From Bifidobacterium longum subsp. longum JCM 1217 (GTDB lineage Bacteria > Actinomycetota > Actinomycetes > Actinomycetales > Bifidobacteriaceae): 32,000 nt of DNA. A model generated the notes under the pieces. It was not told the origin of the DNA. It was given only the letters and a program-made list of their open reading frames with translations, and did no database searches. The DNA lies in NCBI RefSeq assembly GCF_000196555.1, contig NC_015067.1, positions 1,170,001 through 1,202,000 on the forward strand, read 5' to 3'. Below, piece after piece: positions 908 through 26,771 of the stretch (position 1 is the stretch's first letter; each line of letters starts with the position of its first letter). Made by a program: the position numbers and the translations under genes.

Positions 908-1984
<1,077 letters not shown>

Positions 1985-2059
1985 TCAAGTCGGTGTTTCG
2001 TGTTTCGTCACTAATTTTTTTCGGTTTTCGGCATGAGGAGTGCCGGCCGGTGGTTTGTT

Positions 2060-2821
2060 TTACTGGTTGTCCGTCTTGCCGAACATGAGGGCCTGGCTGA
2101 CGCGTCGGCTGGGGCCGGTGAATTCGATGAGGCGTCCGTGGTGGACGATGCGGTCGATGATCGCGGCGGCGAGTTTGTCGTCGGCGAAGATCGTCCCCCA
2201 TTTGCTGAACTCGATGTTCGTGGTGAAGATGATGCTGCGCCGCTCGTAGCTGCCGGCGATGATCTGGTAGAGGAGGCGGGCCCCGTCGATGTCGAAGGGC
2301 ACGTAGCCGAACTCGTCGAGGATGATCAGGTCGGCACGGGCGAGGTCTTTGAGCAGGTTGTCGAGGGCGCCGTCGCGTTTGGCCTTGCCGAGCTGGAGCA
2401 CGAGCTCCGCGGTCTGCCGGAACCTCACGCTCCTGCCTTGCTCGATGGCGAGCATGCCCAGGGCGGTGGCCAGGTGGGTCTTGCCGCGTCCCGTCTTGCC
2501 GTAGAACACGAGGTCCTGCGCCTTGGCCACGAAATCGAGGCCGGTCAGCTGCTCCTTGGTGTATCCGTCGGGCAGGCGCACGTTCGCGAAGTCGTAGCCG
2601 TCGAGGCTTTTGGGCACCGGGAACCGGGCCTGGCGCATGAGCCTTGCCCGTTTGGAGGCCTCCCTGTTGGCCAGTTCCGTGGCGAGCATGCGGTCGATGG
2701 CGTCCAGTTGGCGGGGCGTGGCCCATTCGAGCGTTTCGTCGATGGTGGCCTGCGAGATGAACAGGCTCCTCGCCCGCTCGCGCAGCGGGCCGGGGTCGGT
2801 CCGTCCGTTCTTCTGGTTCAC
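2060..2821 (-). CDS. istB: IS21-family helper ATPase IstB
   Basis: It lies in the frame of ORF 2060..3133. The GTG start (complement 2819-2821) overlaps the istA stop. Motifs seen: VNQKNGRT..., FYGKTGRGKTHLATALG (Walker A), LIILDEFGYVP (Walker B) and FTTNIEFSKWG. Confidence 0.9.
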   Translation of the reverse strand: MNQKNGRTDPGPLRERARSLFISQATIDETLEWATPRQLDAIDRMLATELANREASKRARLMRQARFPVPKSLDGYDFANVRLPDGYTKEQLTGLDFVAKAQDLVFYGKTGRGKTHLATALGMLAIEQGRSVRFRQTAELVLQLGKAKRDGALDNLLKDLARADLIILDEFGYVPFDIDGARLLYQIIAGSYERRSIIFTTNIEFSKWGTIFADDKLAAAIIDRIVHHGRLIEFTGPSRRVSQALMFGKTDNQ

Positions 2822-4284
2822 TCGTCCTCCTTGGTGTAGGCGATGTCGTATTCGCTCAGGTCCACGGGGTCGTCGTAGGCCACGGGTCCCAGGCCCGAGG
2901 CGTGGCGTGCCGCGGCCAGACATACCCCGGCCCGGTCCGTGCCTCCGGTGGATTCGAGGATCTCGAGCATGCCGGCCACGGCCGCCCGCCAGCCGCTCTC
3001 GCCGTCGGCGTGCAGCAGGGCACGCAGGCTGTCGCGCCGCGTGGCCTCGTCCTGCGCGTCGATCCATTCGCGAAGCGGGTCGGGCATCGCGTCGCGCACC
3101 CGGCTGTTGCGCCAGGCCGCCGGCCGGTCGCACAACAGCCCGAGCTGGCTCGACGGGTCGCCGCTGTCGGTCGGCTTGTCCCCGTAGGACCTCGGATGCG
3201 TGATCACGCGTTTGCCTTCGGCATCGAGGATCTCCACCTCCAGGGCCCTCAGGCCGACGATCATCTCATGGCCGGCGTGTTCGGGTCCGGCCGCGTACCG
3301 GTGGCGGCCCTGGACGGTGACGTTTCCGTATTTGTCGGCCTTCATCCTCGTCCACGTGACCACGTCGAACGGCTTGGCGGGCAGGGGCAGCAGCGCCTTG
3401 CGATCATCCTCGAACAGGCCGGCCTGGCTCTCGCCCTTCCTGTAATGGTCCTTGTCCCCCAGCTCGAGACAGCGGTCGGGAAGGCGCAGGTTGAAGTTGT
3501 CGAGGCTCCACACGCTGGGCACCGGCACGAACAGCCTTCGGCGCACGGCCCCGACCCTGGCCTCGACCGCGCCCTTCTCGTGGCCCGAGTACGGGTTGCA
3601 GAACGAGTACTCGAACCCGTAATGGGCCTGGAACGCCTGGAACAGGCGGGTCAGGCGGATCTCGTCGAACCGTCGGCGGCCCACGCCGGCGGCATTGTCG
3701 TACACGATGCGCCGGGGCACCCCGCCCAGCCATTCGAACAGGTTAAGCAAAGCCTGACACGTGCATTCCGCGTTCTCCCCGGGCATCAGCTGGCACGGCG
3801 AGATGTTCGAGTACGGGAAATCCAACACGAAATGCCGCATCCGCGTCACGACGCCCCGGTAGCGCACGTCGACCTGGCCGAAGTCCGCCTGGCATTCGCC
3901 CGGATGCCACGACAGGTCCAGGAAACCCATCTCGCGCTCCGCCATGAACTCACGCTTCAACCGGGCCACCGTCCGGGTCACCGTCGACAACGACGCCTCC
4001 ACCCCGTACTCGTCACGCAACCGCTCGTGGATGCGCGTCGCCGTGTGACGTTGCTTGTGCCAGGTCTCCCGGTCCTCGGCGAGCATGCCCTCGATCACGG
4101 GAATCCACTCGTCGAGCACCGAGCCACGGCGTCTCCTTACCGGAGGCCTGGCCGACAGGTCGTCGGCCTTGAGATACTTGCGCACGGTCGGCTCGCTGAC
4201 CTTCTCGCCGCGCGCGATCGAGGCGACGGACTCCCCATTCCTGCGCCTCTGACGGATAGACTGTATTTTGGGCATGCTGATCAT
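2818..4284 (-). CDS. istA: IS21-family transposase IstA
   Basis: ORF 2818..4284 encodes 488 aa. It has an N-terminal HTH (SVASIARGEKVSEPTVRKYL) and DDE-type core segments (CQADFGQVDV, IVYDNAAGVG, NPYSGHEKGAVEARVG). It sits immediately upstream of, and overlapping, istB. Confidence 0.9.
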   Translation of the reverse strand: MISMPKIQSIRQRRRNGESVASIARGEKVSEPTVRKYLKADDLSARPPVRRRRGSVLDEWIPVIEGMLAEDRETWHKQRHTATRIHERLRDEYGVEASLSTVTRTVARLKREFMAEREMGFLDLSWHPGECQADFGQVDVRYRGVVTRMRHFVLDFPYSNISPCQLMPGENAECTCQALLNLFEWLGGVPRRIVYDNAAGVGRRRFDEIRLTRLFQAFQAHYGFEYSFCNPYSGHEKGAVEARVGAVRRRLFVPVPSVWSLDNFNLRLPDRCLELGDKDHYRKGESQAGLFEDDRKALLPLPAKPFDVVTWTRMKADKYGNVTVQGRHRYAAGPEHAGHEMIVGLRALEVEILDAEGKRVITHPRSYGDKPTDSGDPSSQLGLLCDRPAAWRNSRVRDAMPDPLREWIDAQDEATRRDSLRALLHADGESGWRAAVAGMLEILESTGGTDRAGVCLAAARHASGLGPVAYDDPVDLSEYDIAYTKEDE

Positions 4285-4418
4285 TTGCCTTTCCGGCCCT
4301 TTCCCGAATGGATTCGAAGCACCATCAGGCTAAGGCCCACGGGTGGTCGGCATGCCTTTCTGCCTAAACCCGAAAAAACTACGTGACTAAAACCTCAACT
4401 CCCTATTGAACACATACA

Positions 4419-4426
4419 GCGCCCAG
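4419..4426. repeat. target-site duplication GCGCCCAG, right copy
   Basis: See 1968-1975. Confidence 0.85.
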
Positions 4427-4714
4427 CATCCGGTAGAGGGGGTCGCGGGCGTTCTCGCGTCCCTTGCGGGCCGCCTCGGCCGGGGTGACGCCGGGCTTGG
4501 CGTGGATGAACCGGTGGATGGTGGTCCCGTTCACGTTGAGGGCGGCGATGCCGGTGGGCGCGAGGGTGAGCGTGTTGCGCGGCGCGATCGTGCTTCGCCA
4601 ATGGTTGACGAGGGTGCTTTTGCCCGTGCCCGCCTTGCCGGTCAGGATCGAGACGCCCTGGGGTTCGGACAGCATGGCGAGCGCCTTCGCGTCGAAAGTG
4701 AGGTCTTCGGTCAT
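4419..4714 (-). pseudogene. PIF1/RecD-like helicase, N-terminal fragment (Walker A)
   Basis: ORF 4403..4714 reads [36 protein letters not shown]...LAPTGIAALNV...DPLYRMLGA, then runs into the IS end (VCVQ, stop). Joining 4419 to 1975 and removing one GCGCCCAG copy restores ...[17 protein letters not shown]... in frame. Confidence 0.85.
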
Positions 4715-4748
4715 GCGCCGGGGTATGCGTCAGTCGGCCTCCGGGCCG

Positions 4749-5045
4749 TGTATGCATTCCGGCCGGGCTGTATGCATCCGTATGCATCAGGGGATGCATA
4801 CACGCCCGTTCTCCGTTTCGGCTTGTTTCCAGCGTTCCGGGGCGGCCTCCACGCGTGTATGCATTGTATGCATCATTCCCTTATAGAGGATTCGGGAAAA
4901 GGAAGGAAACCCCATATATTGATGCATACAATGCATACAAGATAAAGGAATTATATTTTTTCCTTTATTTATAAGGGTTTTCGGGCTTTTTCCGGGCTTT
5001 TTCTGTATGCATCCCCGGATGCATACAGATGCATACATGCATACA
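4749..5045. repeat. GTATGCAT box array, copy 1 (12 boxes; contains a 20-bp-arm inverted repeat at 4856-4875 / 4920-4939)
   Basis: Forward boxes (GTATGCAT) start at 4750, 4770, 4780, 4857, 4866 and 5005. Reverse boxes (ATGCATAC) start at 4794, 4922, 4931, 5019, 5029 and 5037. TGTATGCATTGTATGCATCA and TGATGCATACAATGCATACA are exact reverse complements separated by 44 bp. The array lies directly upstream of the helicase ATG (4712-4714). Confidence 0.9.
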
Positions 5046-5056
5046 TCGGGGTGAAA

Positions 5057-5163
5057 ACAGTACACTGACGGACTGTTTTCCAGGCCCTTCCGACCCCGAT
5101 ACGGTGGATCCATGGCCCCGGCGGGCATGACGAGGGGCGGCCGACAGTACACAGACGGACTGT
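5057..5163. repeat. two copies of the 20-mer ACAGTACAC(T/A)GACGGACTGT (5057-5076 and 5144-5163), each an ACAGT/ACTGT hairpin
   Basis: I read this directly from the sequence. The first copy is nested inside an ATCGGGGT...ACCCCGAT inverted repeat. The position is analogous to the palindromes that follow box-array copy 3. Confidence 0.7.
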
Positions 5164-5245
5164 TCGCGATTGAACGCCCGGATCGCCGACCCGTATGTTC
5201 CAGAGGGAAAGGAGTCTCGCGATGGAAGACAAGGACAGGCTGGAA

Positions 5246-5299
5246 GGGTTCGGACAGCATGGCGAGCGCCTTCGCGTCGAAAGTGAGGTCTTCGGTCAT
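5246..5299 (-). pseudogene. duplicated first 18 codons of the helicase gene ([18 protein letters not shown]) with no continuation
   Basis: The stretch from 5246 onward repeats the stretch from 4661 almost base for base. After SEP the reading frame diverges into non-helicase sequence. Confidence 0.8.
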
Positions 5300-5334
5300 G
5301 CGCCGGGGCATGCGTCCGATCGGCCTCCGGGCCG

Positions 5335-5631
5335 TGTATGCATTCCGGGGCGCGTGTATGCATCCGTATGCATCAGGGGATGCATACATGCCCGTTCTTC
5401 GTTTCGGCTTGTTTCCAGCGTTCCGGGGCGGCCTCCACGCGTGTATGCATTGTATGCATCATTCCCTTATAGGGGATTCGGGAAAAGGAAGGAAACCCCT
5501 TATATTGATGCATACAATGCATACAAGAGAAAGGAATTCTGTTCTTTCCTTTATATATAAGGGTTTTCGGGCTTTTTCCAAGCTTTTTCTGTATGCATCC
5601 CCGGATGCATACAAATGCATACATGCATACA
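5335..5631. repeat. GTATGCAT box array, copy 2 (12 boxes; 20-bp-arm inverted repeat at 5442-5461 / 5506-5525)
   Basis: It has the same box order and orientation as copy 1. It is part of a 385/386-bp direct repeat (4661-5045 versus 5246-5631). Confidence 0.9.
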
Positions 5632-5641
5632 GAACAGGCCG

Positions 5642-5764
5642 GGGGGACGTCACGATTGGCTGTACAGATGGACGCTGTACAGCCACACCGGGGCGTTGGT
5701 GAGGAAAATCCTCGCTAAGGACGTCGGACTGTCGGAGGTCGAGATTCGGGAGATACTCAAATGA
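5642..5764 (+). pseudogene. hicA: hicA toxin remnant (C-terminal ~27 codons only)
   Basis: There is no start codon. The frame ending at TGA 5762-5764 reads ...YSHTGALVRKILAKDVGLSEVEIREILK, which resembles the HicA C-terminus (xLRKAILKQLGLS type). Its stop overlaps the hicB ATG as ATGA. The 5' part has been replaced by box-array copy 2. Confidence 0.45.
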
Positions 5765-5985
5765 GCGCACACGTGAAATCAGTGAAGATCGTATACCACC
5801 GTGACGAGGGCGCATGGTGGGCCGACTCCCCGGACATGCCGGGATTCTCCGCCGTCGGGGACACCTTCGACGACACGAGGAAGCTTGCCCTCGAGGGCAT
5901 CCCCTTCTACTTCGATGGCAATAGGCCCGATATCGTGGACGAGCGCATGGAGAACGGGGCGAGCCTGAAGCCCACGAGACCGTAA
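5761..5985 (+). CDS. hicB: HicB-family antitoxin (short form)
   Basis: The 74-aa ORF reads VKIVYHRDEGAWWADSPDMPGFSAVGDTFDDTRKLALEGIPFYF. This matches the HicB N-terminal domain pattern (dg.wwa.vpdlPG..a.GdT.ee). Confidence 0.7.
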   Translation: MSAHVKSVKIVYHRDEGAWWADSPDMPGFSAVGDTFDDTRKLALEGIPFYFDGNRPDIVDERMENGASLKPTRP

Positions 5986-6046
5986 GACGCAACCCGGACG
6001 CCGTTCCGGGGGCGCATGTCACATCAAAGCTTAGAATCCCCCGGCT

Positions 6047-6870
6047 TTAGCCGTGGGGAGAAGTCAAATCATCCGAAGCGAGAAAAGGCCGGTCTTGGTA
6101 GAACGTCTCGCCAACACTACCGTTGTAGCATACGGTAATTGTATTGGCTGGGTGCATATTCTCGGTATTACCGACCATTGCGGTGCAACCGTTGTTCATC
6201 GCAGAAGAACCGATAAAGCGTATATCACCCGGAATCATATTTGCTTTTGTCAGCCTTGTTCCTTTAACAACGTCAAACAGCTTCCAAATAACAAACTCCT
6301 GCCATTCGGCTATGCCCAGCGCATGCTTGCTCTCATCGGCTTGCCTCAGCCTCTCAAGGCTTGCTTCAGACTCTCAAGGCTTGCTTCAGACTCTTTCATG
6401 ACTGCCGACATGTACTCGTCCATGTAAGCCCAATCAGGCTCGCCGGACGTATCAACGGGCAAACGAATCATTTCGTCTTCTATAGTCTTGGAATTTAACT
6501 GGTCAGAATACGTATATTTGGTCAGTGACTGGCGAATCACAGACGAAACAAATAGTCCCGACAGTTCTGTTAAACCTGCATTGTGCAACATCAAGATTGC
6601 AGAACCAGCACCACCACGACCCAGAAAAGGCTTGGCTTGATAAAAAGCTGAACCATCAATCGGACTTACTGTGATGCAATTTCCTGCATCCAGCACTTCA
6701 TCATCTTTTGGCTTACACCACTTAGTGACACCATTGTTGAAATTTCCAGATGCAACAAAAGGAATATTTCCGTCTTCATACTTTGCTTGACTACGAGCAA
6801 CTGGTCGCTTTATTTCAAACAACTTACCTATCTTGAACTCTTTCCATCCGTTCGTATCAATCTTCGCCAT
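6047..6870 (-). pseudogene. hsdS: HsdS-like specificity subunit, frameshifted and 3'-truncated
   Basis: ORF 6346..6870 holds TRD1 plus the central helix (GNIPFVASGNFNNGV...ITVSPIDGSAFYQAKPFLGRGG...SEASLESLKQALRG, stop). ORF 6047..6238, with its open upstream frame (LERLRQADESKHALGIAEWQEFVIWKLFDVVKGTRLTKANMIPGDIRFIGSSAMNNG...YNGSVGETFYQDRPFLASDD), holds TRD2 in a different frame. TRD2 ends abruptly without a distal conserved helix. Confidence 0.8.
6351..6390. repeat. perfect 20-bp tandem duplication (CTCTCAAGGCTTGCTTCAGA x2) inside the hsdS central helix
   Basis: 6351-6370 equals 6371-6390. Removing one copy reads ...KESEASLERLRQADESKHALGIAEWQEF..., which fuses TRD1 and TRD2 in frame. Confidence 0.9.
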
Positions 6871-8659
6871 CGCCGTCTCCGCCTTTCCTCATGGTTACGG
6901 TCACGGACTTGTCATCGGCGCTCACTCGGCTCGAATACATCGCTGTGTCCAGCAGCTTCTCGCCGAACTCCTTTGCGTCGATGCCCTGCCGGAACATCAG
7001 GTAGTCCATCGCCGTCTTGCGGAAGTCCTCCTCGAATATCTCGAACGGCTTCTGCGGCATCTGATAGGACAGGTGCTCGGCGGGGTTCACCCACTGGCAT
7101 GTATCGTCGCCGGACTGCTTCTCGACCACATCGACCCAATGAGCCTCAATGGCCGCCCACTTGCCGTAGACGTCATGGCGTCCCTTGTTCTTGACCGTCG
7201 CCAGACCATCGGACTCCATGTAACAGGCGAAAAACTCCTTGCCGTCCTGTCCGACGCCCGCCTCGAACACGAAGATGCTCGTGGTCACGCCCACGCCGAA
7301 GAACAGGTCTTCCGGCAGCTTGATGACCTTGCGCAGGCGATGGTTCTTCAGAATGCGCTTCATCTGCGCCTTCGATGCTTTCTCCAGCTTCTTGTCCGGC
7401 AGGATGAACGCGCACTGGGTATGTGCGGGAACGCTGTCCATCACGTTCTCGACGATGGTCATGCAGCCGTACTTGTTCTCGTACGGCGGGTTCATCAGCA
7501 CCTTCGTGATCGGCTTGGACTGCATCCATTCGTTGGCTGCATCCGTGCGAGTATCCATCTGTTCAAGGTTCGTCTTGCCGTCCTTGTGAATCAGCATGTT
7601 CGCGCACGCCAGCGCGTAAATCTCGCGGTCGAACTCGATGCCGTAGAGCTGCTTGGATTTAATCTCGCCGGCCTTCTTCGTTTCCATGCCGCCGGCCTCG
7701 CGAATCATGTTCGCCATGGCCTTCACGAGGAAGCCGCCGGAACCGCACGTGGCGTCCAGAACGCAGTCGTCCATGTTCACTTCGAGAATCTTGTATATGA
7801 AGTCCGTGATGTGCTCGGGCGTGAATATCTGCCCCGATTCGGACTTTTTCTTGTAACGGTTGAACTCGTTGAAGAAAATGCCCATCACGTCCTCGCCGCG
7901 CCATTCGTTCGAGTTGACGCACTCGGAAATCTCGACGACCCAGTCGATGAAGTCATTGATTGCCTTCTGGTTGTCGGTCGTGTTCATCTTGATGTCGGAA
8001 TATTCCTCCAGCAGGATGTCAATTTTCGCATTCTGTTTGCGACTGGCTATCAATGATTTTGCAAGCGTCGAGTGAATCGCCGTATGGAACGTCTCATACC
8101 CAAGGTCTTTCAGACGCTTCAATCCCGCACCGTAACGCTCGGCAACCAACGCGCATGCCGTGAAAATCATGCGGTGGTACAGGTTCTTGATGCCGAACTC
8201 GAAATGCAGGCAGTTGTTGATACGTGCCGTCAGCTGGTAGATGCGCTCCTTGTCGATGCTATCGACGGTATAGAGCGACAGGTAATAGCCGACATGCTGC
8301 AACTTGTCGGGCGTCTTGACTTCCTCCTCGCCCTTGAACACGCGCACATCCTCGCCGTTGTACAAAACGCCGACAACCTTCTCATATTGTGTCTGCATGA
8401 TGCGGACGTTCTTCAGCACCTCGTCCACCTGCGCCTTGCCCAGGGCAATGCGCGTCGCCTTCGTCTCCAACACCAGCGCTACATCCGCCTTGTTCTTCGG
8501 TAGATACCAGCCGTCCGGCTTGTCGGCAATGCCTGAAAATCCGAGCTGGTTGAACGTCGTGAGCTGGCCAACGCCGGCACAAGCCAAATCACTATCCGCA
8601 AGTCCAAGAATGTCACGTGCCAAATCGCGCACGGCATCCTCTGTCATATTCTTCGCCAC
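6857..8659 (-). CDS. N6-adenine DNA methyltransferase subunit with an N-terminal PD-X15-ExK nuclease-like motif (HsdM-like; possibly a BcgI-A-like type IIB R-M subunit)
   Basis: The product is 600 aa. It carries VLDATCGSGGFL (motif I) and LMNPPY (motif IV). N-terminal residues 48-67 read PDGWYLPKNKADVALVLETK. The gene overlaps the specificity gene by 14 nt. No hsdR is visible in the window. Confidence 0.85.
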   Translation of the reverse strand: MAKNMTEDAVRDLARDILGLADSDLACAGVGQLTTFNQLGFSGIADKPDGWYLPKNKADVALVLETKATRIALGKAQVDEVLKNVRIMQTQYEKVVGVLYNGEDVRVFKGEEEVKTPDKLQHVGYYLSLYTVDSIDKERIYQLTARINNCLHFEFGIKNLYHRMIFTACALVAERYGAGLKRLKDLGYETFHTAIHSTLAKSLIASRKQNAKIDILLEEYSDIKMNTTDNQKAINDFIDWVVEISECVNSNEWRGEDVMGIFFNEFNRYKKKSESGQIFTPEHITDFIYKILEVNMDDCVLDATCGSGGFLVKAMANMIREAGGMETKKAGEIKSKQLYGIEFDREIYALACANMLIHKDGKTNLEQMDTRTDAANEWMQSKPITKVLMNPPYENKYGCMTIVENVMDSVPAHTQCAFILPDKKLEKASKAQMKRILKNHRLRKVIKLPEDLFFGVGVTTSIFVFEAGVGQDGKEFFACYMESDGLATVKNKGRHDVYGKWAAIEAHWVDVVEKQSGDDTCQWVNPAEHLSYQMPQKPFEIFEEDFRKTAMDYLMFRQGIDAKEFGEKLLDTAMYSSRVSADDKSVTVTMRKGGDGDGED

Positions 8660-8889
8660 TACTCATCCACCTCCTCAAGATACTCCTGCACCCACTCGTG
8701 GATGATTGCGGCAATCGTCGTCCCACGCTCCGCAGCCGTCATCTTGAGCGCCTTCTTGTCGCTCACGGTGAGCGACAGCGAGAGCGTGGTGCGCTTCTCG
8801 TCCGCCGTCGTGTCGGCGACGACGGCCTCCTCTGTCTTCTTCTGCCCGGCCTCGCGGTCGGCGGCGTATTGCTCGAACATGTTCGCCAT
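8659..8889 (-). CDS. ribbon-helix-helix (CopG/Arc-like) DNA-binding protein
   Basis: I start it at MANMFEQY..., which is preceded by AAAGGAGG with 7-nt spacing. The segment TLSLSLTVSDKKALKMTAAERGTTIAAIIHEWVQEYL fits a beta-strand plus two-helix pattern. Its stop overlaps the methyltransferase start by 1 nt. Confidence 0.65.
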   Translation of the reverse strand: MANMFEQYAADREAGQKKTEEAVVADTTADEKRTTLSLSLTVSDKKALKMTAAERGTTIAAIIHEWVQEYLEEVDE

Positions 8890-8910
8890 GGCCCGACCTC
8901 CTTTAATCAT

Positions 8911-8926
8911 TTGCACAATTGCACAA
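8911..8926. promoter_or_regulatory. tandem 8-mer TTGCACAA TTGCACAA, candidate operator of the RHH/methyltransferase operon
   Basis: This direct repeat lies about 20 bp upstream of the RHH start, in the AT-rich divergent region between the RHH gene (-) and the exonuclease gene (+). RHH proteins typically bind tandem or inverted short repeats. Confidence 0.4.
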
Positions 8927-9066
8927 TCATACATCTTGCTTTATGGGATGCGCAGACGGAACATCGCCCTGACCTCCCAGAAGTGCCGGGACCGCACCCC
9001 GCGGAACCTTCCCAAGCATCCCCGTGGGATCCGCCCCCGTGGAATGCGTGACGCATACCCGGGGGC

Positions 9067-17827: not shown

Positions 17828-17860
17828 TCCCGTATGCGTCCGTCCGGAACGCATACGGGA
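17828..17860. promoter_or_regulatory. inverted repeat TCCCGTATGCGT-N9-ACGCATACGGGA in a divergent intergenic region
   Basis: The 12-bp arms are perfect and each contains the ACGCATAC box. The repeat lies between the starts of 16904..17824 (-) and 17913..18608 (+). Confidence 0.6.
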
Positions 17861-18608: not shown

Positions 18609-18808
18609 AAACGAACGGGATCAAGGGGATGCGGGCATGCGGCCGTCCGGACCGTTTCGCCCGCATCACGATCCCCTCTCAAGCGCATACCGGGTGCGCA
18701 TTCTCCCAACGAAACGCGAACCAAGCAGCCCCATGATGGCGTGAGACGTGGAGCGACCACCCGCAAGGATGGCCTGCAAGCCAGAACAAACCAGTTTGCA
18801 ACGGACAA

Positions 18809-18923: not shown

Positions 18924-20234
18924 TCAGACGGCGAGCCTTTCGCGCACGCGGAGCGCCCAGTCGACCGCCATGGCGGCCTGCGGGGGCACGACCCCGTTGC
19001 CCAGGGCGCGCAGTTGGAGGTTCCTGTGATTGCCGTCCACATGCCGCCAGATCGCCGGATCGGTGACCCAGCCGTCCTCCAGGCCCATCATCCATTCCAC
19101 GAACCTCGGGGATAGGTGGGCGGCCGACGGGAACCGGGGGCCTTCGAATCGGGTCTTCCAATAACCGAGCACGCTTTTGTCGGGCAGACGGGTCGCGGGG
19201 ATCGGGATGTCCGGGTCCATGTCCTTGCAGCCGGGCCAGAACATGGGGTCGATGAGGCTCATCCCCCGGTCGGTTTCACGCCAGAGCGCGAGCATGCGGT
19301 CGCGCATCGGCTGGTCCAGCCGGGCTTTCGGATGCGCGTCGAACGGGGCGTGGCGGGCGAGCCAGTACGGTTCGAACAGCGTGGGGTCGTCGGCGTTCGC
19401 CCCGACCCAGCGGCGCAGGCCGCCGGTCGCCTGCGTGGGACAGGGGGCGGGACGGCCGGACACCCGCTCCCAGCGGCGGATCGCGGCGGCGAACCGGCCG
19501 AAGCGCACGCCCCGCCCGTCGTCCAGACCCCAGAGTCCCCCATGATAGGGGCCGGGCGCGGGGATCGCGCGCGTCCCCTGTTCGACGGCGCCGGTCATGC
19601 ATGTCTGGTCGTTCCTCTGATTGCGGCCTTTCACGTCGCTGGCGCGCGGCGTGGGCATCATATCCACATCATCCGTCATCACGTCCTCCCTCAGGTTCCC
19701 GGTCGAATCGCGTCGGCTCCCGTCCCGGTCGCCGCGACGCAGGACGCGTTCCAACGCGGCCCCGTCGCGGGGCGCGATCGCATCCATGCAGTTCGGCGTG
19801 GCGAACAGGCGGGCTTCCGGCAGGATGTCGATGTCGTCGCTCTTCTCCGCCCAGTCGGCGACGGTGACCGCATGCCCCATGGCCGCGCGGCGTTCCGGGA
19901 TCATCGTGCCCCCGTTCCACTCGTTCGACGTGGGCGTGGGCAGGTGGTCGATGTCGTCGCGCAGGTTCCGGTAGCCGGCGCCTTTTCCGGCGCGCGGCCG
20001 TTCCGCATCCGCATGCGGGGGCAGCATGTCCATACAGTTCGGCGTGCCCGGCAGTTCGTTTTCGCTCATGCCCGTCGTATGCGTTCCCATGATCCGGATC
20101 TCCCCCGCGTCGAGGATCGCGTTCACCAGGGCGACGCCCCGCCAGTTCTCCCCCGGCCGCCAGCAGCCGCGCACCGTATGCCGGGTCGCGTCCATCACCG
20201 TCGGCGTGGGCAGCCACAGATCGTCATCAGTCAT
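18924..20234 (-). CDS. C5-cytosine methyltransferase, C-terminal portion (TRD repeats plus motifs IX-X)
   Basis: LPTPT, TPNCMD, LPTPTSNEW and MPTPRASDVKG repeats are present. FGRFAAAIRRWERVSGRPAPCP and SPRFVEWMMGLEDGWVTD...QLRALGNGVVPPQAAMAV give the ENV-family C-terminal motifs (GNxVVP). Motifs I-VIII are absent. The start could be ATG 20234 or GTG 20240. Confidence 0.7.
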   Translation of the reverse strand: MTDDDLWLPTPTVMDATRHTVRGCWRPGENWRGVALVNAILDAGEIRIMGTHTTGMSENELPGTPNCMDMLPPHADAERPRAGKGAGYRNLRDDIDHLPTPTSNEWNGGTMIPERRAAMGHAVTVADWAEKSDDIDILPEARLFATPNCMDAIAPRDGAALERVLRRGDRDGSRRDSTGNLREDVMTDDVDMMPTPRASDVKGRNQRNDQTCMTGAVEQGTRAIPAPGPYHGGLWGLDDGRGVRFGRFAAAIRRWERVSGRPAPCPTQATGGLRRWVGANADDPTLFEPYWLARHAPFDAHPKARLDQPMRDRMLALWRETDRGMSLIDPMFWPGCKDMDPDIPIPATRLPDKSVLGYWKTRFEGPRFPSAAHLSPRFVEWMMGLEDGWVTDPAIWRHVDGNHRNLQLRALGNGVVPPQAAMAVDWALRVRERLAV

Positions 20235-20415
20235 GGCCACGGGTATGCGTCAGGCGGGGCAGGCGTATCGGATCATGGAAACGGGACGGTCCCCGCCGTT
20301 CCAGACCCTTAGTCTTGGCCGCATGGACATCATCCGCTTGACTTCCTCCCCCGCCTAAAGAGGCGGGAGTCTGCGCCACCCAAACAAAGATCAAGACTCC
20401 CAGTATTTCCTTCAT
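20227..20415 (-). CDS. possible 62-aa peptide with a hydrophobic N-terminus inside the methyltransferase intervening sequence
   Basis: GGGGGAGGA lies 6 nt before the ATG. The product reads MKEILGVLIFVWVAQTPASLGGGGS.... Its stop overlaps the next ORF start by 8 nt. The only support is the RBS and the open frame. Confidence 0.3.
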   Translation of the reverse strand: MKEILGVLIFVWVAQTPASLGGGGSQADDVHAAKTKGLERRGPSRFHDPIRLPRLTHTRGHD

Positions 20416-20708
20416 GCCCGATCCTCCCCCATGCCAATCCAATCTCACGAAATCGCGGGAATGGCCGAACAAGGTCTTCCCCCGATGGTCACGAACATGG
20501 ACGGGTGGTCGCCCATGTGGTCAAATACGCGAACGAGGCGGGGCGAGCCCATGCCGCTGCGATCCCGGTTCGGGTATCCGCTTTCCATACGAGGATCGCG
20601 CGATCCGGCTGGAATGGCGCGAGACGGGACCCGAAGGGCCTATGGACAAAGAAACCCGGCATGCCCGCGATTTCTCCATGCGCAACGAAGCCGACCATGC
20701 CCCGGGTC

Positions 20709-22238
20709 CTACAGGAGATTGATCGCATCCGCCAATCCGAGCTGCGCGCCCCGCCTCCGGCGGCGGACCGCATCCTCCGCTGTGCCCGCCTTCACGCTGT
20801 CGTACAACGCGTTCGGCGTGGGCAGCATGACGGCCGCCGTCCGCAAATCCGGCGCCCCGTCCCCGTGCACGCCCGCCCCGTTCGCATCGTTCGCCCTCGG
20901 GGTCGGCAGCTTCGAATCATGCTCCCTGACCTTCTCCGGGTCCATACGGCCCGGCAGGTCCATGAGACGCACCTGCGTGGACAGGAACGTGCTCCTGTCC
21001 AACGGGCGGCCCGACGTGGCCGGGGCGGCGAACACCCCGTCCGACTGCTTCGGCGTGTACAGGAACCCGTCGGCCGGGATCCCCGCAGCCTGCGCGGGCA
21101 GGGGCGCATCCCCCGTCCCATACGCCTGGCCCGGGCCGCCCTTCGCCCCGTCGGACGCCTTCGGCGTCGCCAAAACGGAACCGGCCGCCGGCTCCGGGAC
21201 CTTCAGCCACGATTCGGGCACCGTATACACGCGGCCGGCGGCCATCACGCCGGACTTCGGCCACGCGTCCATGAACACGTCCACGTCCCCGAACAGATCC
21301 GGCTCGCCCGTCGTCCACACATCCCTGTCCGCATCCCACACGCCCCATGCGCGCCCCCTCGGCCTCATGGGCGGCAGTTGGGCGAGACGCCTCAGCCGGG
21401 CGTTCGACGGTTCGCGCGCCGACTTCGGATCGCGCGGCCATGCGGTCACGAAGATGCGCAGCCTGTGGTGGGGGGCGCCGATGTCGGCCGCCTCAAGGCC
21501 TCGCCACACCGCGTCGTAGCCCAGATTCGCCAGATCGCCCAGCACACGGCCGAGCGCCCGGATCGTGGGCGCCGTATGCACGCCGGACAACCGTTCGTCA
21601 TCCGCCAGCACCATGTCGCCCCTCACCTCGAACACGCGGCGGCCGCACTGCCTGCACGTGACGGGCGAGCACCGCTCCGGATCCGCATGCAGGAAACCGC
21701 GCAGGACGACGGCCAGGGGCTGCGAGGTTTCCTCCTTGGGATCCGGGGCTTCGAATCCGTCGGGCAGTTCGAGGTCCGGAATTTCGCAGGAGCATAATCC
21801 GGCCTTGTCCAACGCTTCGGAGCGGAGCGCGTCCATGCGCTCGTCCTCCTTGGAGACGCTGATGCCGCTCAGGAGTCCGGCCACGTTCTCCGCGACCACG
21901 AGACTGGGGCGGATGATGCCGATTCCCTTGGCGTAGTCGAGCCACAGGCCGCTTCGCGTTCCCGCCTTCAACCCGGCACGGAACCCCGCAAGAGAAAGGG
22001 ACTGGCAGCAGAATCCGCCGGCCATCACCTCGATGTCCTTGTATTTCTCCCAGTCGATTTTCGTGATGTCGCCCAATCGGCGGGCTTTCGGCGCGTGATG
22101 GGAGCCAAGGGCGAGAGGCCCGGGTTCGATGTCGGACCATCCGACCAGTTCCCCCTCGCCGATCGCCTTGGATACGCCGATGTCGAGGCCGAGATAGCCG
22201 GAGAACAGGGAAATCGTCTTGTATGTCTTGTTCTGCAT
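20709..22238 (-). CDS. C5-cytosine methyltransferase, N-terminal portion (motifs I-VIII plus the start of the TRD)
   Basis: Motifs seen: ISLFSGYLGLDIG (motif I), GGFCCQSLSLAG (motif IV, catalytic Cys), VVAENV (motif VI) and LGYDAVWRGLEAADIGAPHHRLRIFVTAW (motifs VII/VIII). These are followed by LATPKASDGAKGGP, YTPKQSDG, LPTPRANDANG and LPTPNALYD repeats. It ends ...GAQLGLADAINLL without motifs IX/X. Confidence 0.8.
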   Translation of the reverse strand: MQNKTYKTISLFSGYLGLDIGVSKAIGEGELVGWSDIEPGPLALGSHHAPKARRLGDITKIDWEKYKDIEVMAGGFCCQSLSLAGFRAGLKAGTRSGLWLDYAKGIGIIRPSLVVAENVAGLLSGISVSKEDERMDALRSEALDKAGLCSCEIPDLELPDGFEAPDPKEETSQPLAVVLRGFLHADPERCSPVTCRQCGRRVFEVRGDMVLADDERLSGVHTAPTIRALGRVLGDLANLGYDAVWRGLEAADIGAPHHRLRIFVTAWPRDPKSAREPSNARLRRLAQLPPMRPRGRAWGVWDADRDVWTTGEPDLFGDVDVFMDAWPKSGVMAAGRVYTVPESWLKVPEPAAGSVLATPKASDGAKGGPGQAYGTGDAPLPAQAAGIPADGFLYTPKQSDGVFAAPATSGRPLDRSTFLSTQVRLMDLPGRMDPEKVREHDSKLPTPRANDANGAGVHGDGAPDLRTAAVMLPTPNALYDSVKAGTAEDAVRRRRRGAQLGLADAINLL

Positions 22239-22280
22239 ACGCGGCTGTATGCGTTCCGAGGCATTCGAAAAAACCCGTCA

Positions 22281-24493: not shown

Positions 24494-24548
24494 TGCCGTT
24501 CCTCCGTTTCGACGGTGTTGTGCGCCCCGGGTATGCGTTCCCCGTCCG

Positions 24549-25775
24549 TCAGAAGAGCGGGAGGCTTGCGGGGCGTTCGAGCCGGTCGGCCGTGAGCGGC
24601 AGGTACGTGGGGTCGAGCTCCGTGGCCGCGCACCGCAGGCCTTCCCGCCGGCATGCGTCCAGTGTGGTGCCGGAGCCGGCGAACGGGTCGAGGACGAGGC
24701 CGTGGGGCGGGCATGCGAGGCGGGCGAGCCATCGGGTCAGGTCCAGGGGTTTGACGGTCGGGTGGGCGAGCCGTCTTTCGCCCGCCGGCACGGTCAGGGC
24801 GAGCGCCGCCGTGTCGAGCAGGCACGCGGGGTACGCGTCCGCCCCGGATTCGAGTCCCAGGCGCGCGCAGCACGCCTTCCACGCCTTGTCCCGTGTCCGG
24901 GGGCGGACGATGCGTTCCAGGACGCGCACGGGCCTGTCCTGCGCTTTCGGGCAGTAGTAGAAGCGCGGCGCGTCCGCGGGCAGGAGCCGGGCCATGGCCT
25001 TGTCCATGAGGACGTTCGACGGGTGGCGGCCCGGTATGCGCGGCCCCATGGGCCTGGGCGTGTCCGAATCGCGGAACGTGTCGCCGCCGCGCGGCGCGTC
25101 CGGACGCCCCCCGGCGGTCGCGTTGAGCCGGTAGCGGCGCCCCAGCTCCCCCATGTCCGCGTCCAGGGCGCAGGCGGCCACGTTCAGGGCGCCCGTCCCG
25201 TGGTCCATGAGGTTGCGGCCGAGCATGGACTCGCGGGGGCGCTGGGCGACGAGGATCGGCTCCCATGCGGGTTTGAGCGCCGGGTTGAACCCGCGCCAGG
25301 GCCGCGCCTCGCGGGTCTTCGCCTCGTAGCGTTCCGTGTAGGCGACGTTGCGTTCCAGGGACGCGGAGTCGCGTATGACGCCGGTCCGGTCGTCCTTCAC
25401 GCCGAGCGCCCGGTCGACCGCATGGTCGCCCCATTCGCCCTTCGGCATGCCGGACGCGTACAGCCAGCAGAACTGGTCGCGGATCAGCCAGCCCGCGTCC
25501 TCCATGGCGCAGGCGAGCCGGTGCCAGGTGCGGGGCGAGCCGAACACGAGGGCGAACGCGCCGGGGCGGACCATGCCGAGCATGGCCGTCCAGAATTCCG
25601 GGTCGAAGGCGATGCCGGTGGAGTCCCAGCGTTTCACCTCGCCCGCGGTGCCCAGGCCGAGCTCGTAGGGCGGGTCGGTGACGATCGCGTCCGCGGGCGC
25701 GTCGAGGAGGCCGGGCAGGCGTCTCGCGTCCGCGTTGTACAGGGTCAGGCCGTCATGGTCGATGAATGGTCTCAT
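24549..25775 (-). CDS. beta-class N6-adenine/N4-cytosine DNA methyltransferase (DPPY ... FAGSGTT order)
   Basis: I start it at [20 protein letters not shown]. Motifs seen: [11 protein letters not shown] (motif IV), GRHPSNVL and [16 protein letters not shown]...[15 protein letters not shown] (motif I). The track ORF extends upstream only by reading through the box array (MMHTMHTR...). Confidence 0.85.
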
Positions 25776-25815
25776 GGGCCCCGTGTATGCGTCCGCCGGG
25801 GCGGGCGTCGGGCCC

Positions 25816-26114
25816 GTATGCATTCCGGGCGGGCTGTATGCATCCGTATGCATCGGGGGATGCATACATCTTTTCTTTCCGTTTCGGCTTGTTTCCGACG
25901 TTCCGGGGATGGTCCGGAGGCGTGTATGCATTGTATGCATCATTCCCTTATAGGGGATTCGGGAAAAAGGAAGGAAACCCCATATATTGATGCATACAAT
26001 GCATACAAGAGAAAGGAATTATATTTTTTCCTTTATATATAAGGGTTTTCGGGCCTTTTCCCAAGCCTTTTCTGTATGCATCCCCGGATGCATACAGATG
26101 CATACACGCATACA
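25816..26114. repeat. GTATGCAT box array, copy 3 (11 exact boxes plus 1 ACGCATAC variant; 20-bp-arm inverted repeat at 25923-25942 / 25988-26007)
   Basis: It has the same order and orientation of boxes and the same AT-rich core as copies 1 and 2. It lies between the N6/N4 methyltransferase start (25775) and the XRE gene. Confidence 0.9.
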
Positions 26115-26129
26115 AAACGGGCCGGAAAA

Positions 26130-26191
26130 CTTTACAATATTGTAAAGCCCCGGCCCCGGACTTTACAATATTGTAAAGTCCGGGGCCGGGG
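26130..26191. promoter_or_regulatory. 18-bp palindrome CTTTACAATATTGTAAAG (26130-26147) plus a 44-bp perfect palindrome (26148-26191) containing a second copy; candidate operators of the XRE regulator
   Basis: CCCCGGCCCCGGACTTTACAAT|ATTGTAAAGTCCGGGGCCGGGG is self-complementary over all 44 bp. It ends 28 bp upstream of the XRE ATG. Confidence 0.6.
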
Positions 26192-26219
26192 AGCCCGGCG
26201 AAACGGATCGGAGGATCGC

Positions 26220-26771
26220 ATGGAAGACGGGAACGTGAAGGCGACGCTCGACATGCTCGCCGGACTGGGACTGGACGTGCGCGTGATGCGCGAGACGCCG
26301 TTCCTCGCCGTCGTGGAGAACCCCGCCATCCCCTCGCGCAGGGTCGCCGTCGCCGTCCCGGACGGGGACGGGCCCGCCCGGGCCGCCATGTTCGAAACCG
26401 ACCCGCGCACCGGCCGCAACCGGCCGCACGGGGATTCCGCGGCCGTCCCCCGCGACGACCCGTGGCCGACGGTCGCCGGCATGTGCCGGACATGGCTGGC
26501 CGGGCTCGGCGCGCTCGGGGACGCCGCCGGGCTCACCCGGGCCGAACTCGCCCGCAGGACGGGCGTCGCGGCCACCAGGATCAGCGAATACGCCCGGCCG
26601 CGCCCCGGGCGCGCGGATCCCGCCAACATGACGCTGCGCACCGCCCGCGCACTGGCCCGCGCGCTCGGCGTCACCATCGACGCCCTGTACGACACCATGG
26701 CGATGCGCATCCCGGAAAACGGGCCGACGGCCCGACAGGCGGGAACATCCGATCCGGCCCGCCGGGCATGA
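26220..26771 (+). CDS. XRE-family helix-turn-helix regulator (HTH in the C-terminal half)
   Basis: GGAGGA lies 4 nt before the ATG. The product reads MEDGNVKATLDMLAGLG...GLTRAELARRTGVAATRISEYARPRPGRADPANMTLRTARALARALGVTIDALYD, which fits the XRE pattern. Confidence 0.7.
   Translation: MEDGNVKATLDMLAGLGLDVRVMRETPFLAVVENPAIPSRRVAVAVPDGDGPARAAMFETDPRTGRNRPHGDSAAVPRDDPWPTVAGMCRTWLAGLGALGDAAGLTRAELARRTGVAATRISEYARPRPGRADPANMTLRTARALARALGVTIDALYDTMAMRIPENGPTARQAGTSDPARRA

Follow-up and report, generated by a model that had tools for sequence, protein, structure and literature searches.

In 2012, M.AquI and M.EcoHK31I were the only C5-cytosine DNA methyltransferases known to consist of two polypeptides (PMC3404938). 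Enzymes of this class need motifs IX and X for their fold and cofactor pocket; M.AquI is divided into one polypeptide that carries motifs I-VIII along with a portion of the variable region and another with the remainder and motifs IX-X, and fragments of M.BspRI, M.BsuRI, M.HhaI and M.SssI that were cut in the variable region complement each other in vivo (PMC3404938). Here we describe a pair of open reading frames (ORFs) in a stretch of 32,000 nucleotides (nt) from Bifidobacterium longum subsp. longum JCM 1217 (contig NC_015067.1, positions 1,170,001 to 1,202,000; the whole stretch is called the window, and coordinates refer to it). From their sequence and that of their relatives, these are probably the subunit genes of a naturally split, M.AquI-like C5-cytosine DNA methyltransferase carried by a prophage-like element.

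Two long ORFs, called the N-half and the C-half, lie on the minus strand of the window with a gap of 474 nt between them (20235..20708):

20709..22238, minus strand: candidate N subunit gene, 509 amino acids (aa), with motifs I-VIII and four tandem "LPTP" modules; a TAG stop stands right after ..NLL.
21999..22019, minus strand: motif IV, GGFCCQS, with the catalytic Cys78 kept and Cys77 replacing a near-invariant proline.
18924..20234, minus strand: candidate C subunit gene of 436 aa; five modules in tandem (I-L-J-A-B) precede the FGRFAAAIRRWE/GRPAPCP core, which is followed by motifs IX and X.
20077..20084, minus strand: an in-frame ACGCATAC-N7-ATG within the C-half, its ATG being that of Met56; a possible alternative start that would give a 381-aa product.

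An earlier reading of the same DNA from its letters (the sequence-only reading) had described the split ORFs, their motifs and their positions, all of which were borne out. In protein comparisons, the N-half was identical to BAJ66674.1 (JCM 1217, 'hypothetical phage protein') and to KFI63699.1 of B. longum, and the C-half to KFI63697.1 of B. longum, annotated as 'hypothetical protein'. The stretch of 3.6 kilobases (kb) comprising the N-half, the spacer and the C-half is 100% identical across seven B. longum assemblies, three of which are complete genomes. A megablast search with the 3.8-kb locus against phage and plasmid collections yielded zero matches, and the sole match in a scan of genome contigs was short, irrelevant and from Streptosporangiaceae. 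In the following, W denotes the window copy, L0xx the contigs of related elements and P00xx homologous proteins.

The N-half was recognized by Pfam as PF00145 (DNA_methylase, E=1.8e-23, spanning motifs I-VI), and its sequence matches in the PDB were M.HaeIII and M.HhaI. Besides motif IV, it carries FSGYLGLD (motif I), ENV (21882-21890) and APHHRLRIF (21450-21476), and it ends in ...GAQLGLADAINLL before the stop codon. Residues C78, E117, N118, V119, R259 and R261 correspond to invariant columns in the homologue alignment (A1). The sequence-only reading had given FCCQ as the catalytic motif, which is indeed present; the missing proline had gone unflagged. Position 77 is proline in at least 90% of the sequences in A1, and all the other homologues showing the motif, about 65, have Pro-Cys where the window copy does not. 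The N-half protein is constrained nevertheless, because the comparison of W with L001, both of which carry FCCQ, gives a ratio of nonsynonymous to synonymous substitutions (dN/dS) of 0.17.

In many relatives, an intein with Hint and LAGLIDADG domains sits precisely within motif IV (GGSP/C...N/CQS, slashes marking its ends), so that its +1 residue is the catalytic cysteine. It was found in L009 (5001-7739), L010 (5001-8423) and L011-L013, and in the proteins P0002-4, P0006, P0009, P0012, P0013, P0015, P0050, P0051, P0053, P0057-59, P0066, P0080 and P0081. The window copy has no intein in motif IV, and some relatives have the intein and the split together. An origin of FCCQ by imprecise deletion of an intein was ruled out: FCCQ is neither longer nor shorter than SPCQ or FPCQ, which indicates a substitution.

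The C-half begins with MTDDDLWLPTPTVMD, its 436 aa being counted from the ATG; a GTG two codons 5' of this ATG is a less likely start, and the gene caller of one assembly (L014) used the start that gives 381 aa. The protein contains FVEWMMGLEDGWVTD (19059-19103), LGNGVVPPQA (18975-19004) and GRPAPCP. Motifs IX and X are confined to this half and align with those of unsplit enzymes, with G921, N922 and G923 invariant. The C-half had zero Pfam matches, a sequence search of the PDB returned only chance matches (alpha-ribazole phosphatase, E~0.001), and a tblastn search against phages matched only motifs IX-X of actinophage methylases. The PHROG families of DNA methyltransferases matched its last ~70 residues (phrog_1008 at 1.3e-32, and also phrog_116). 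On the phrog_116 profile of 779 columns, the N-half aligned with columns 203-410 and the C-half with columns 424-490; the two halves are therefore consecutive pieces of one enzyme.

Searches with the C-half yielded 535 proteins at E<=1e-10. An N-terminal Pfam domain was present in only 3 among the best 120 matches, and the remainder of these 120 were stand-alone, unannotated proteins of 245-500 aa. Stand-alone C-halves formed more than 100 clusters at 90% identity, and when the library was clustered at 50% identity, 23 matches reached E<=1e-30, of which about 16 were likewise short and stand-alone.

The window pair resembles M.AquI of Agmenellum quadruplicatum in having a larger N subunit with motifs I-VIII and the proximal variable region and a smaller C subunit with the distal region and motifs IX-X, encoded by adjacent genes on the same strand. 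The likeness is one of motif division. The variable region of the window enzyme consists of nine modules of ~40 aa instead of one target-recognition domain (TRD). Furthermore, the window genes do not overlap but are separated by 474 nt, with distances of 0 to 2.6 kb and unrelated genes in between among relatives; the C gene has its own start signal, the family is large, and the spacer accepts cassettes. The small polypeptide of M.EcoHK31I, also a natural two-polypeptide enzyme, carries only motif IX, and in the engineered complementation of M.BspRI, M.BsuRI, M.HhaI and M.SssI the fragments are artificial, whereas the window split is natural. Within the library searched, we found no paper on this arrangement in Bifidobacterium or actinophages, and nothing specific on LPTP-repeat methyltransferases, inteins or methyltransferases of Bifidobacterium prophages or the proline of motif IV. 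The genes themselves are already in public genomes, with the C-half as 'hypothetical', and the closest functional system is M.AquI.

Relatives were gathered by a search with the concatenated halves and a look-up of the encoding contigs, which yielded about a dozen elements. In every split relative (~12 elements, 45-99% identity), the N-part and the C-part are adjacent, separate ORFs that share one strand and keep their order. Such pairs were found in L001-L005, L007-L009 and L020, and in the distant L011, L012 and L013 (45-52% identity). The N-ORF stops at the identical codon after ..NLL in W, L001-L005 and L007-L009, and the stop codon differs by lineage: TAG in W and L005, TGA in L001, L004 and L009, and TAA in L007 and L008. 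Because the codon position is the same while the stop codons differ, a stop is maintained at ..NLL. Two relatives are unsplit, P0006/L010 (1140 aa, with the same synteny) and P0014. Their sequence runs on past the ..NLL site into a PTP module (..ADAVNLLPTPIAHD in P0014 and ..ADIINLLRTDANMTVLFPTPTAND in P0006), which agrees with the statement of the sequence-only reading that family members continue at this point with LPTP.

The distance between the two ORFs varies widely (29, 104, 131 or a TGATG overlap, 149, 474, 1140, 1146, 2101, 2261 and 2638 nt), and in several relatives they lie in different frames. In L007, 104 nt separate the N stop from the C-half ATG. In L001-L003, the 149 nt between the stop and the C-half ATG are an open extra module in the -1 frame, belonging to a TTG-initiated ORF that overlaps the stop by 4 nt. 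L004 and L008 have spacers of 1140 and 1146 nt holding a 65-aa ORF with two transmembrane (TM) segments and a 224-aa ORF on the opposite strand; the 2101-nt spacer of L009 holds the 65-aa ORF and TnpB, and the spacer of L005 and L020 measures 2638 nt. Among the distant relatives, L011 has a 29-nt spacer with a frameshift at ..LGEAL*/LPTPRAGM, L013 has the TGATG overlap, or 131 nt up to an ATG with a Shine-Dalgarno sequence, and L012 has a 2261-nt spacer (3519-5760) with four or five unrelated small ORFs (147, 117, 84, 39 and 279 aa). Judging from L012, accessory genes seem to have landed repeatedly in the gap between the subunit genes. The genes are not tightly coupled in the window, where the 474 nt contain seven in-frame stops, yet they are tightly linked in L001 (4-nt overlap), L013 (TGATG) and L011 (29 nt). 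The split is thus no local accident but ancient and conserved, and it lies where two modules meet.

Both ORFs are under purifying selection. Pairwise Nei-Gojobori estimates of dN/dS were 0.17-0.65 for the N-half (dS up to 0.6) and 0.22-0.55 for the C-half (dS up to 0.44), with 0.25-0.32 in the C-terminal core and 0.34-0.57 in the module part. Module-sized insertions and deletions between relatives are all in frame. In a simulation of neutral substitution, a 436-codon ORF stayed free of stops with a probability of 0.006 at d=0.2 and <0.001 at d=0.29. The extra module between the genes provides an internal control, for this stretch does decay: L001 still has it whole, the cassette cuts it short in L004 and L009, its sequence is scrambled in L008, and other sequence takes its place in W, L005 and L007.

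The variable region between motif VIII and the FG.F..AI.RWE core is a row of modules, each opening with (L/M/F)x(T/S)P. A count over 33 proteins gave 139 modules, which fall into about 50 types and have a median length of 41 aa. The order in the window enzyme is C-D-H-F / I-L-J-A-B, the slash marking the split:

20712..21173, minus strand: the four modules of the N-half (C-D-H-F), with lengths of ~28-51 aa, the split coming at the end of the last one; predicted local distance difference test (pLDDT) <50 in the AlphaFold2 model.

Module number and order vary among relatives, and a given type is not tied to one side of the split: type H is on the N-side in W and on the C-side in L013, and types L and A are on the C-side in W and on the N-side in P0055. 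In the unsplit P0006, module F is followed directly by J. Tandem modules that differ in number and order between motifs VIII and IX are also found in the Bacillus phage enzymes M.SPRI, M.Phi3TI, M.H2I and M.(phi)BssHII, which, like the window enzyme, belong to phages or prophages; these are single polypeptides, whereas the window enzyme is split. By analogy with them, the LPTP modules may be alternative target-recognition elements, and could act as independent TRDs. For these multispecific methyltransferases, PMC8936443 cites Wilke 1988, Lange 1991 and Sethmann 1999.

An AlphaFold2 prediction was made for the fused N and C sequence with a 30-sequence alignment. It gave a confident N-core (residues 1-349) and C-core (746-945, C-half residues ~237-436), with a predicted template modelling score of 0.63, and pLDDT values below 50 over the whole array of ~400 residues, including the split at 509/510. 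The top PDB matches of the fused-chain model were M.HaeIII and M.HhaI (probability 1.00, TM-score ~0.42-0.46 normalised to the target). As the split lies at a module boundary in a segment predicted to be non-globular, or poorly modelled, a break at this point should be tolerated.

Each half is preceded by the same short sequence at the same distance, as stated in the sequence-only reading:

22247..22254, minus strand: ACGCATAC, 8 nt upstream of the N-half ATG.
20243..20250, minus strand: ACGCATAC, 8 nt upstream of the C-half ATG.

The window contains 13 copies of ACGCATAC against 0.6 expected (~20-fold), a number reached in 0 of 100 shuffles; the sites span 4723 to 28062 (for example 4723-4730, 9051-9058 and 25785-25792). 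Eight copies, including those of both halves, are found 7-9 nt upstream of a long ORF's ATG, and these ORFs have no Shine-Dalgarno sequence. The form [GT]GACGCATA[CT]-N8-ATG is kept before the N-half in nine elements with unrelated flanks and before the C-half in eight (W, L001, L004, L005, L007, L008, L009 and the distant L012), and this conservation suggests that the C-half is an independently started gene. A role of ACGCATAC as a Shine-Dalgarno-like element was rejected: it lacks complementarity to the anti-Shine-Dalgarno sequence, and the copy at 24531-24538 lies ~45 nt upstream of a start with its own GGAGG. Because of this copy, a promoter element fits better than a ribosome-binding signal, and ACGCATAC is probably an element-specific promoter or gene-start signal, possibly of leaderless mRNAs. 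Copies of it also flank the cassettes in L004 and L008, and cassettes may also be exchanged by recombination at this short site. At 17832-17856, two ORFs on opposite strands overlap at their 5' ends, and an inverted pair, GTATGCGT..ACGCATAC, is located there. GCATAC repeats (..ATGCATCCCCGGATGCATACAGATGCATACACGCATAC..) are clustered at 26080-26113, at the start of a helix-turn-helix (HTH) regulator ORF (26076..26771, plus strand) that is divergent from the N4/N6-methyltransferase gene (24549..25943, minus strand). Both places look like operator or promoter regions.

The spacer between the two halves is a patchwork of the following pieces:

20473..20708, minus strand: part 1, non-coding, ~235 nt, common to L005, its first ~85 nt also in L007; codon-position GC content 0.61-0.68 in six frames.
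20350..20415, minus strand: part 2, truncated start of a small membrane-protein ORF, GGAGG-N7-ATG, MKEILGVLIF.., ~15 codons.
20338..20347, no strand assigned: deletion or insertion junction with a 10-nt filler, AGGAAGTCAA.
20323..20340, plus strand: remnant of the 224-aa cassette gene, first six codons MDIIRL (compare MNIIRI.. in L004 and MDIIRI.. in L005).

Part 1 stands where L001, L004, L008 and L009 have a decayed remnant of the extra module. Part 2, which is homologous to the start of the 65-aa ORF in L004 and L008, runs into a hairpin, CCCGCC-TCTTTA-GGCGGG (20350-20367). At the position of the junction, L005 and L020 (B. longum CP011965) hold 2.2 kb with a 413-aa TnpB (OrfB_IS605) and an intact 224-aa gene; the window spacer shows the junction and has no transposase ORF. 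The final ~80 nt of the spacer are conserved and close in GACGCATACCCGTGGCC-ATG. Over six frames, spacer GC by codon position was 0.54-0.74, showing no coding bias, while the genes of the element have ~0.5 at the second and 0.8-0.95 at the third codon position. No candidate ORF of the spacer had a significant Pfam or PHROG family, and the 62-aa ORF given in some annotations is a chimera of spacer pieces and not a gene. The spacer is decayed intergenic filler from a cassette and an insertion sequence (IS), with no role in joining the halves. In relatives, this cassette (L004 7820-8688, L008 6714-7582, L005 5238-5910) encodes the 65-aa two-TM protein and the convergent 224-aa protein with a C-terminal TM segment. 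Neither had a significant Pfam or PHROG family, a weak holin-like match having E=0.16, and the cassette may be a moron-type exclusion or defence module.

We propose the following scheme. The N subunit would contribute the S-adenosylmethionine-binding and catalytic core (motifs I-VIII) with four modules of ~40 aa, and the C subunit five modules, the FG.F..AI.RWE/RPAP.P core and motifs IX and X. Both proteins would be synthesized separately, the C subunit from its own ACGCATAC-N8-ATG signal, and the N-core and C-core would associate non-covalently and so restore the two-domain enzyme, like M.AquI and the engineered fragments. The array between the cores would probably hold a number of alternative target-recognition elements, so that the element could protect its own DNA by methylation from several restriction systems of the host, and an active enzyme would methylate the DNA of element and host against restriction. 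The cassette landed between two already separate genes, and the spacer pieces derive from it.

Among the three explanations offered by the sequence-only reading, the functional two-subunit enzyme is the one with the best comparative support, from the layout shared at 45-99% identity, purifying selection and the common start signal. Several points weigh against it. Cys-Cys replaces Pro-Cys in the window copy, in P0001 (88% identical) and its contigs and in all B. longum copies, and this change at Cys77 may weaken or abolish catalysis. The C-half of L009 is frameshifted, so decay does happen. The dN/dS of the module region (0.3-0.55) indicates only moderate constraint, and recombination, visible as mosaic dS, blurs the pairwise estimates. 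The AlphaFold2 chain was fused, so the model does not show association of separate chains. The nature of ACGCATAC, promoter or otherwise, is read from its position, and neither a sigma-70-like promoter nor an intrinsic terminator was predicted within the spacer. A rival reading is that the gene is dead or dying: the stop or frameshift, the insertions and the change from Pro to Cys would have inactivated the methyltransferase, and the ORFs would be relics without an enzymatic role in this strain. In favour of this reading, FCCQ is restricted to this lineage, the C-half of L009 is frameshifted, the spacer is visibly decaying amid IS traffic, and the element also bears an IS21 insertion and an orphan IS end. 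We regard this as unlikely, given that both ORFs are intact in every other lineage examined at dS of 0.2-0.6 and dN/dS below 1 (0.17 for the N-halves of W and L001), that open ORFs are improbable under the neutral simulation, that stop and start positions and start signals are conserved, and that stand-alone C-halves form so many clusters. The seven identical B. longum assemblies show no disruption either, although their identity is uninformative on decay. The separate start signals, the spacers able to hold unrelated genes and the N-only proteins that end at other module boundaries (P0054 and P0055, seen as single proteins) would also suit two independent products, with the N-half alone a working or differently specific methyltransferase or a DNA-binding protein and the C-half in a separate role, for example as a regulator or decoy. 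This is improbable: the C5-methyltransferase fold needs motifs IX and X (M.HhaI and M.HaeIII structures; PMC3404938), here present only in the C-half, the genes are always adjacent in the ~12 elements with the same strand and order, and the C-core is the more conserved part (dN/dS 0.25-0.32) and homologous to the C-terminus of unsplit enzymes.

The remaining two explanations concern how the gene came to be divided and whether it is rejoined. The T-even phage nrd genes encode an enzyme in two ORFs with a mobile endonuclease gene between them, and the enzyme is put together again from the protein pieces. There the endonuclease causes the split; here the split predates the cassette, which contains no homing endonuclease. 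That a cassette broke the gene had been another suggestion of the sequence-only reading, and the part of it that stands is that the spacer consists of cassette and IS debris. An insertion of the cassette or IS into an intact gene, with the cassette-free layouts as secondary deletions, would also suit L004 and L008, where ACGCAT(A/G)..CC stands on both flanks of the cassette and looks like a target duplication. However, the cassette is not the cause of the split, since the cassette-free L001-L003, L011 (29 nt) and L013 (TGATG) are split too; L001-L003 have the same stop position, with the -1 frame relation and 149 nt that are still an open extra module, and in L004 and L009 the cassette lies ~150 nt downstream of the stop and not at it. 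This makes an origin by insertion very unlikely. Joining of the halves after transcription or translation, by a spacer intron, a split intein, programmed frameshifting or readthrough, is barely conceivable. The C-half ATG of the window is in frame with the N-half (477 nt apart), and a real intein exists in relatives of the enzyme, but elsewhere, in motif IV. The spacer, in turn, has the seven in-frame stops, and Rfam searches found no group I or II intron or ribozyme in it at E<=10 or at the gathering threshold, a permissive search giving only microRNA and CRISPR-DR noise. Its RNA folding is ordinary relative to shuffled sequence (z=0.20), and spacer length, content and frame relation vary freely among relatives. 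In addition, the N-half tail and the C-half head are ordinary modules homologous to continuous unsplit sequence, with no intein N-terminal Cys block or C-terminal HN block. The removal at the RNA level envisaged in the sequence-only reading thus found no support.

If the two-subunit reading is extended to the whole family, a bolder picture emerges, which we offer as speculative and rather doubtful. The family would be a two-subunit, highly multispecific methyltransferase in which each ~40-aa LPTP module (nine here, of ~50 types) is an independent target-recognition cassette, recombining within and between the subunit genes. The split would permit the C gene to be swapped as a 'specificity subunit', or genes to be inserted through recombination at ACGCATAC, resulting in a modular anti-restriction toolkit of Bifidobacterium mobile elements.

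The locus suggests a large natural family of two-polypeptide C5-methyltransferases in a major human gut commensal and in mobile elements, of which more than 100 clusters of C subunits are called 'hypothetical protein'. If active, these enzymes would explain 5-methylcytosine motifs in Bifidobacterium that are so far unassigned and some transformation barriers. Their natural break points and module boundaries could also be used to engineer methyltransferases that are split or retargeted, and they would offer a system for studying the shuffling of tandem recognition modules. For annotation, the C-half should be named as a methyltransferase subunit, and the 62-aa spacer ORF should not be called a gene.

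By gene content, the surroundings of the locus look like a prophage or other mobile element. Neighbouring genes encode an Enc34-type single-stranded DNA-binding protein, an HNH protein and an RNase_T exonuclease, as well as an HTH regulator and two more DNA methyltransferases; with the N6_N4 methyltransferase at 24549..25943 (minus strand) counted, the element has three DNA methyltransferases in all. A PIF1-like helicase adjoining IS21 is also nearby. At 908-4284, an IS21-type pair, IstA-like (2818..4284, minus strand) and IstB (2060..3133, minus strand), lies beside the PIF1-like helicase ORF (908..1963, minus strand), in which the helicase profile matched the C-terminal part only; IS21 may have interrupted the helicase gene. 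A low-GC island at ~5500-9000 (GC 0.47-0.59 against ~0.70 in the flanks) carries a 600-aa N6_Mtase-domain protein (6857..8659, minus strand); this restriction-modification or Type IIG-like gene was probably acquired separately. A short way downstream of the C-half, at 18711-18778 (plus strand), there is a match to the Rfam Transposase-2 RNA (RF03015; 60.9 bits against a gathering score of 42.7) with no adjoining transposase. L007 and L010 have Y1_Tnp and TnpB genes downstream of the methyltransferase, and the match is therefore probably an orphan end of an IS200/IS605-type element.

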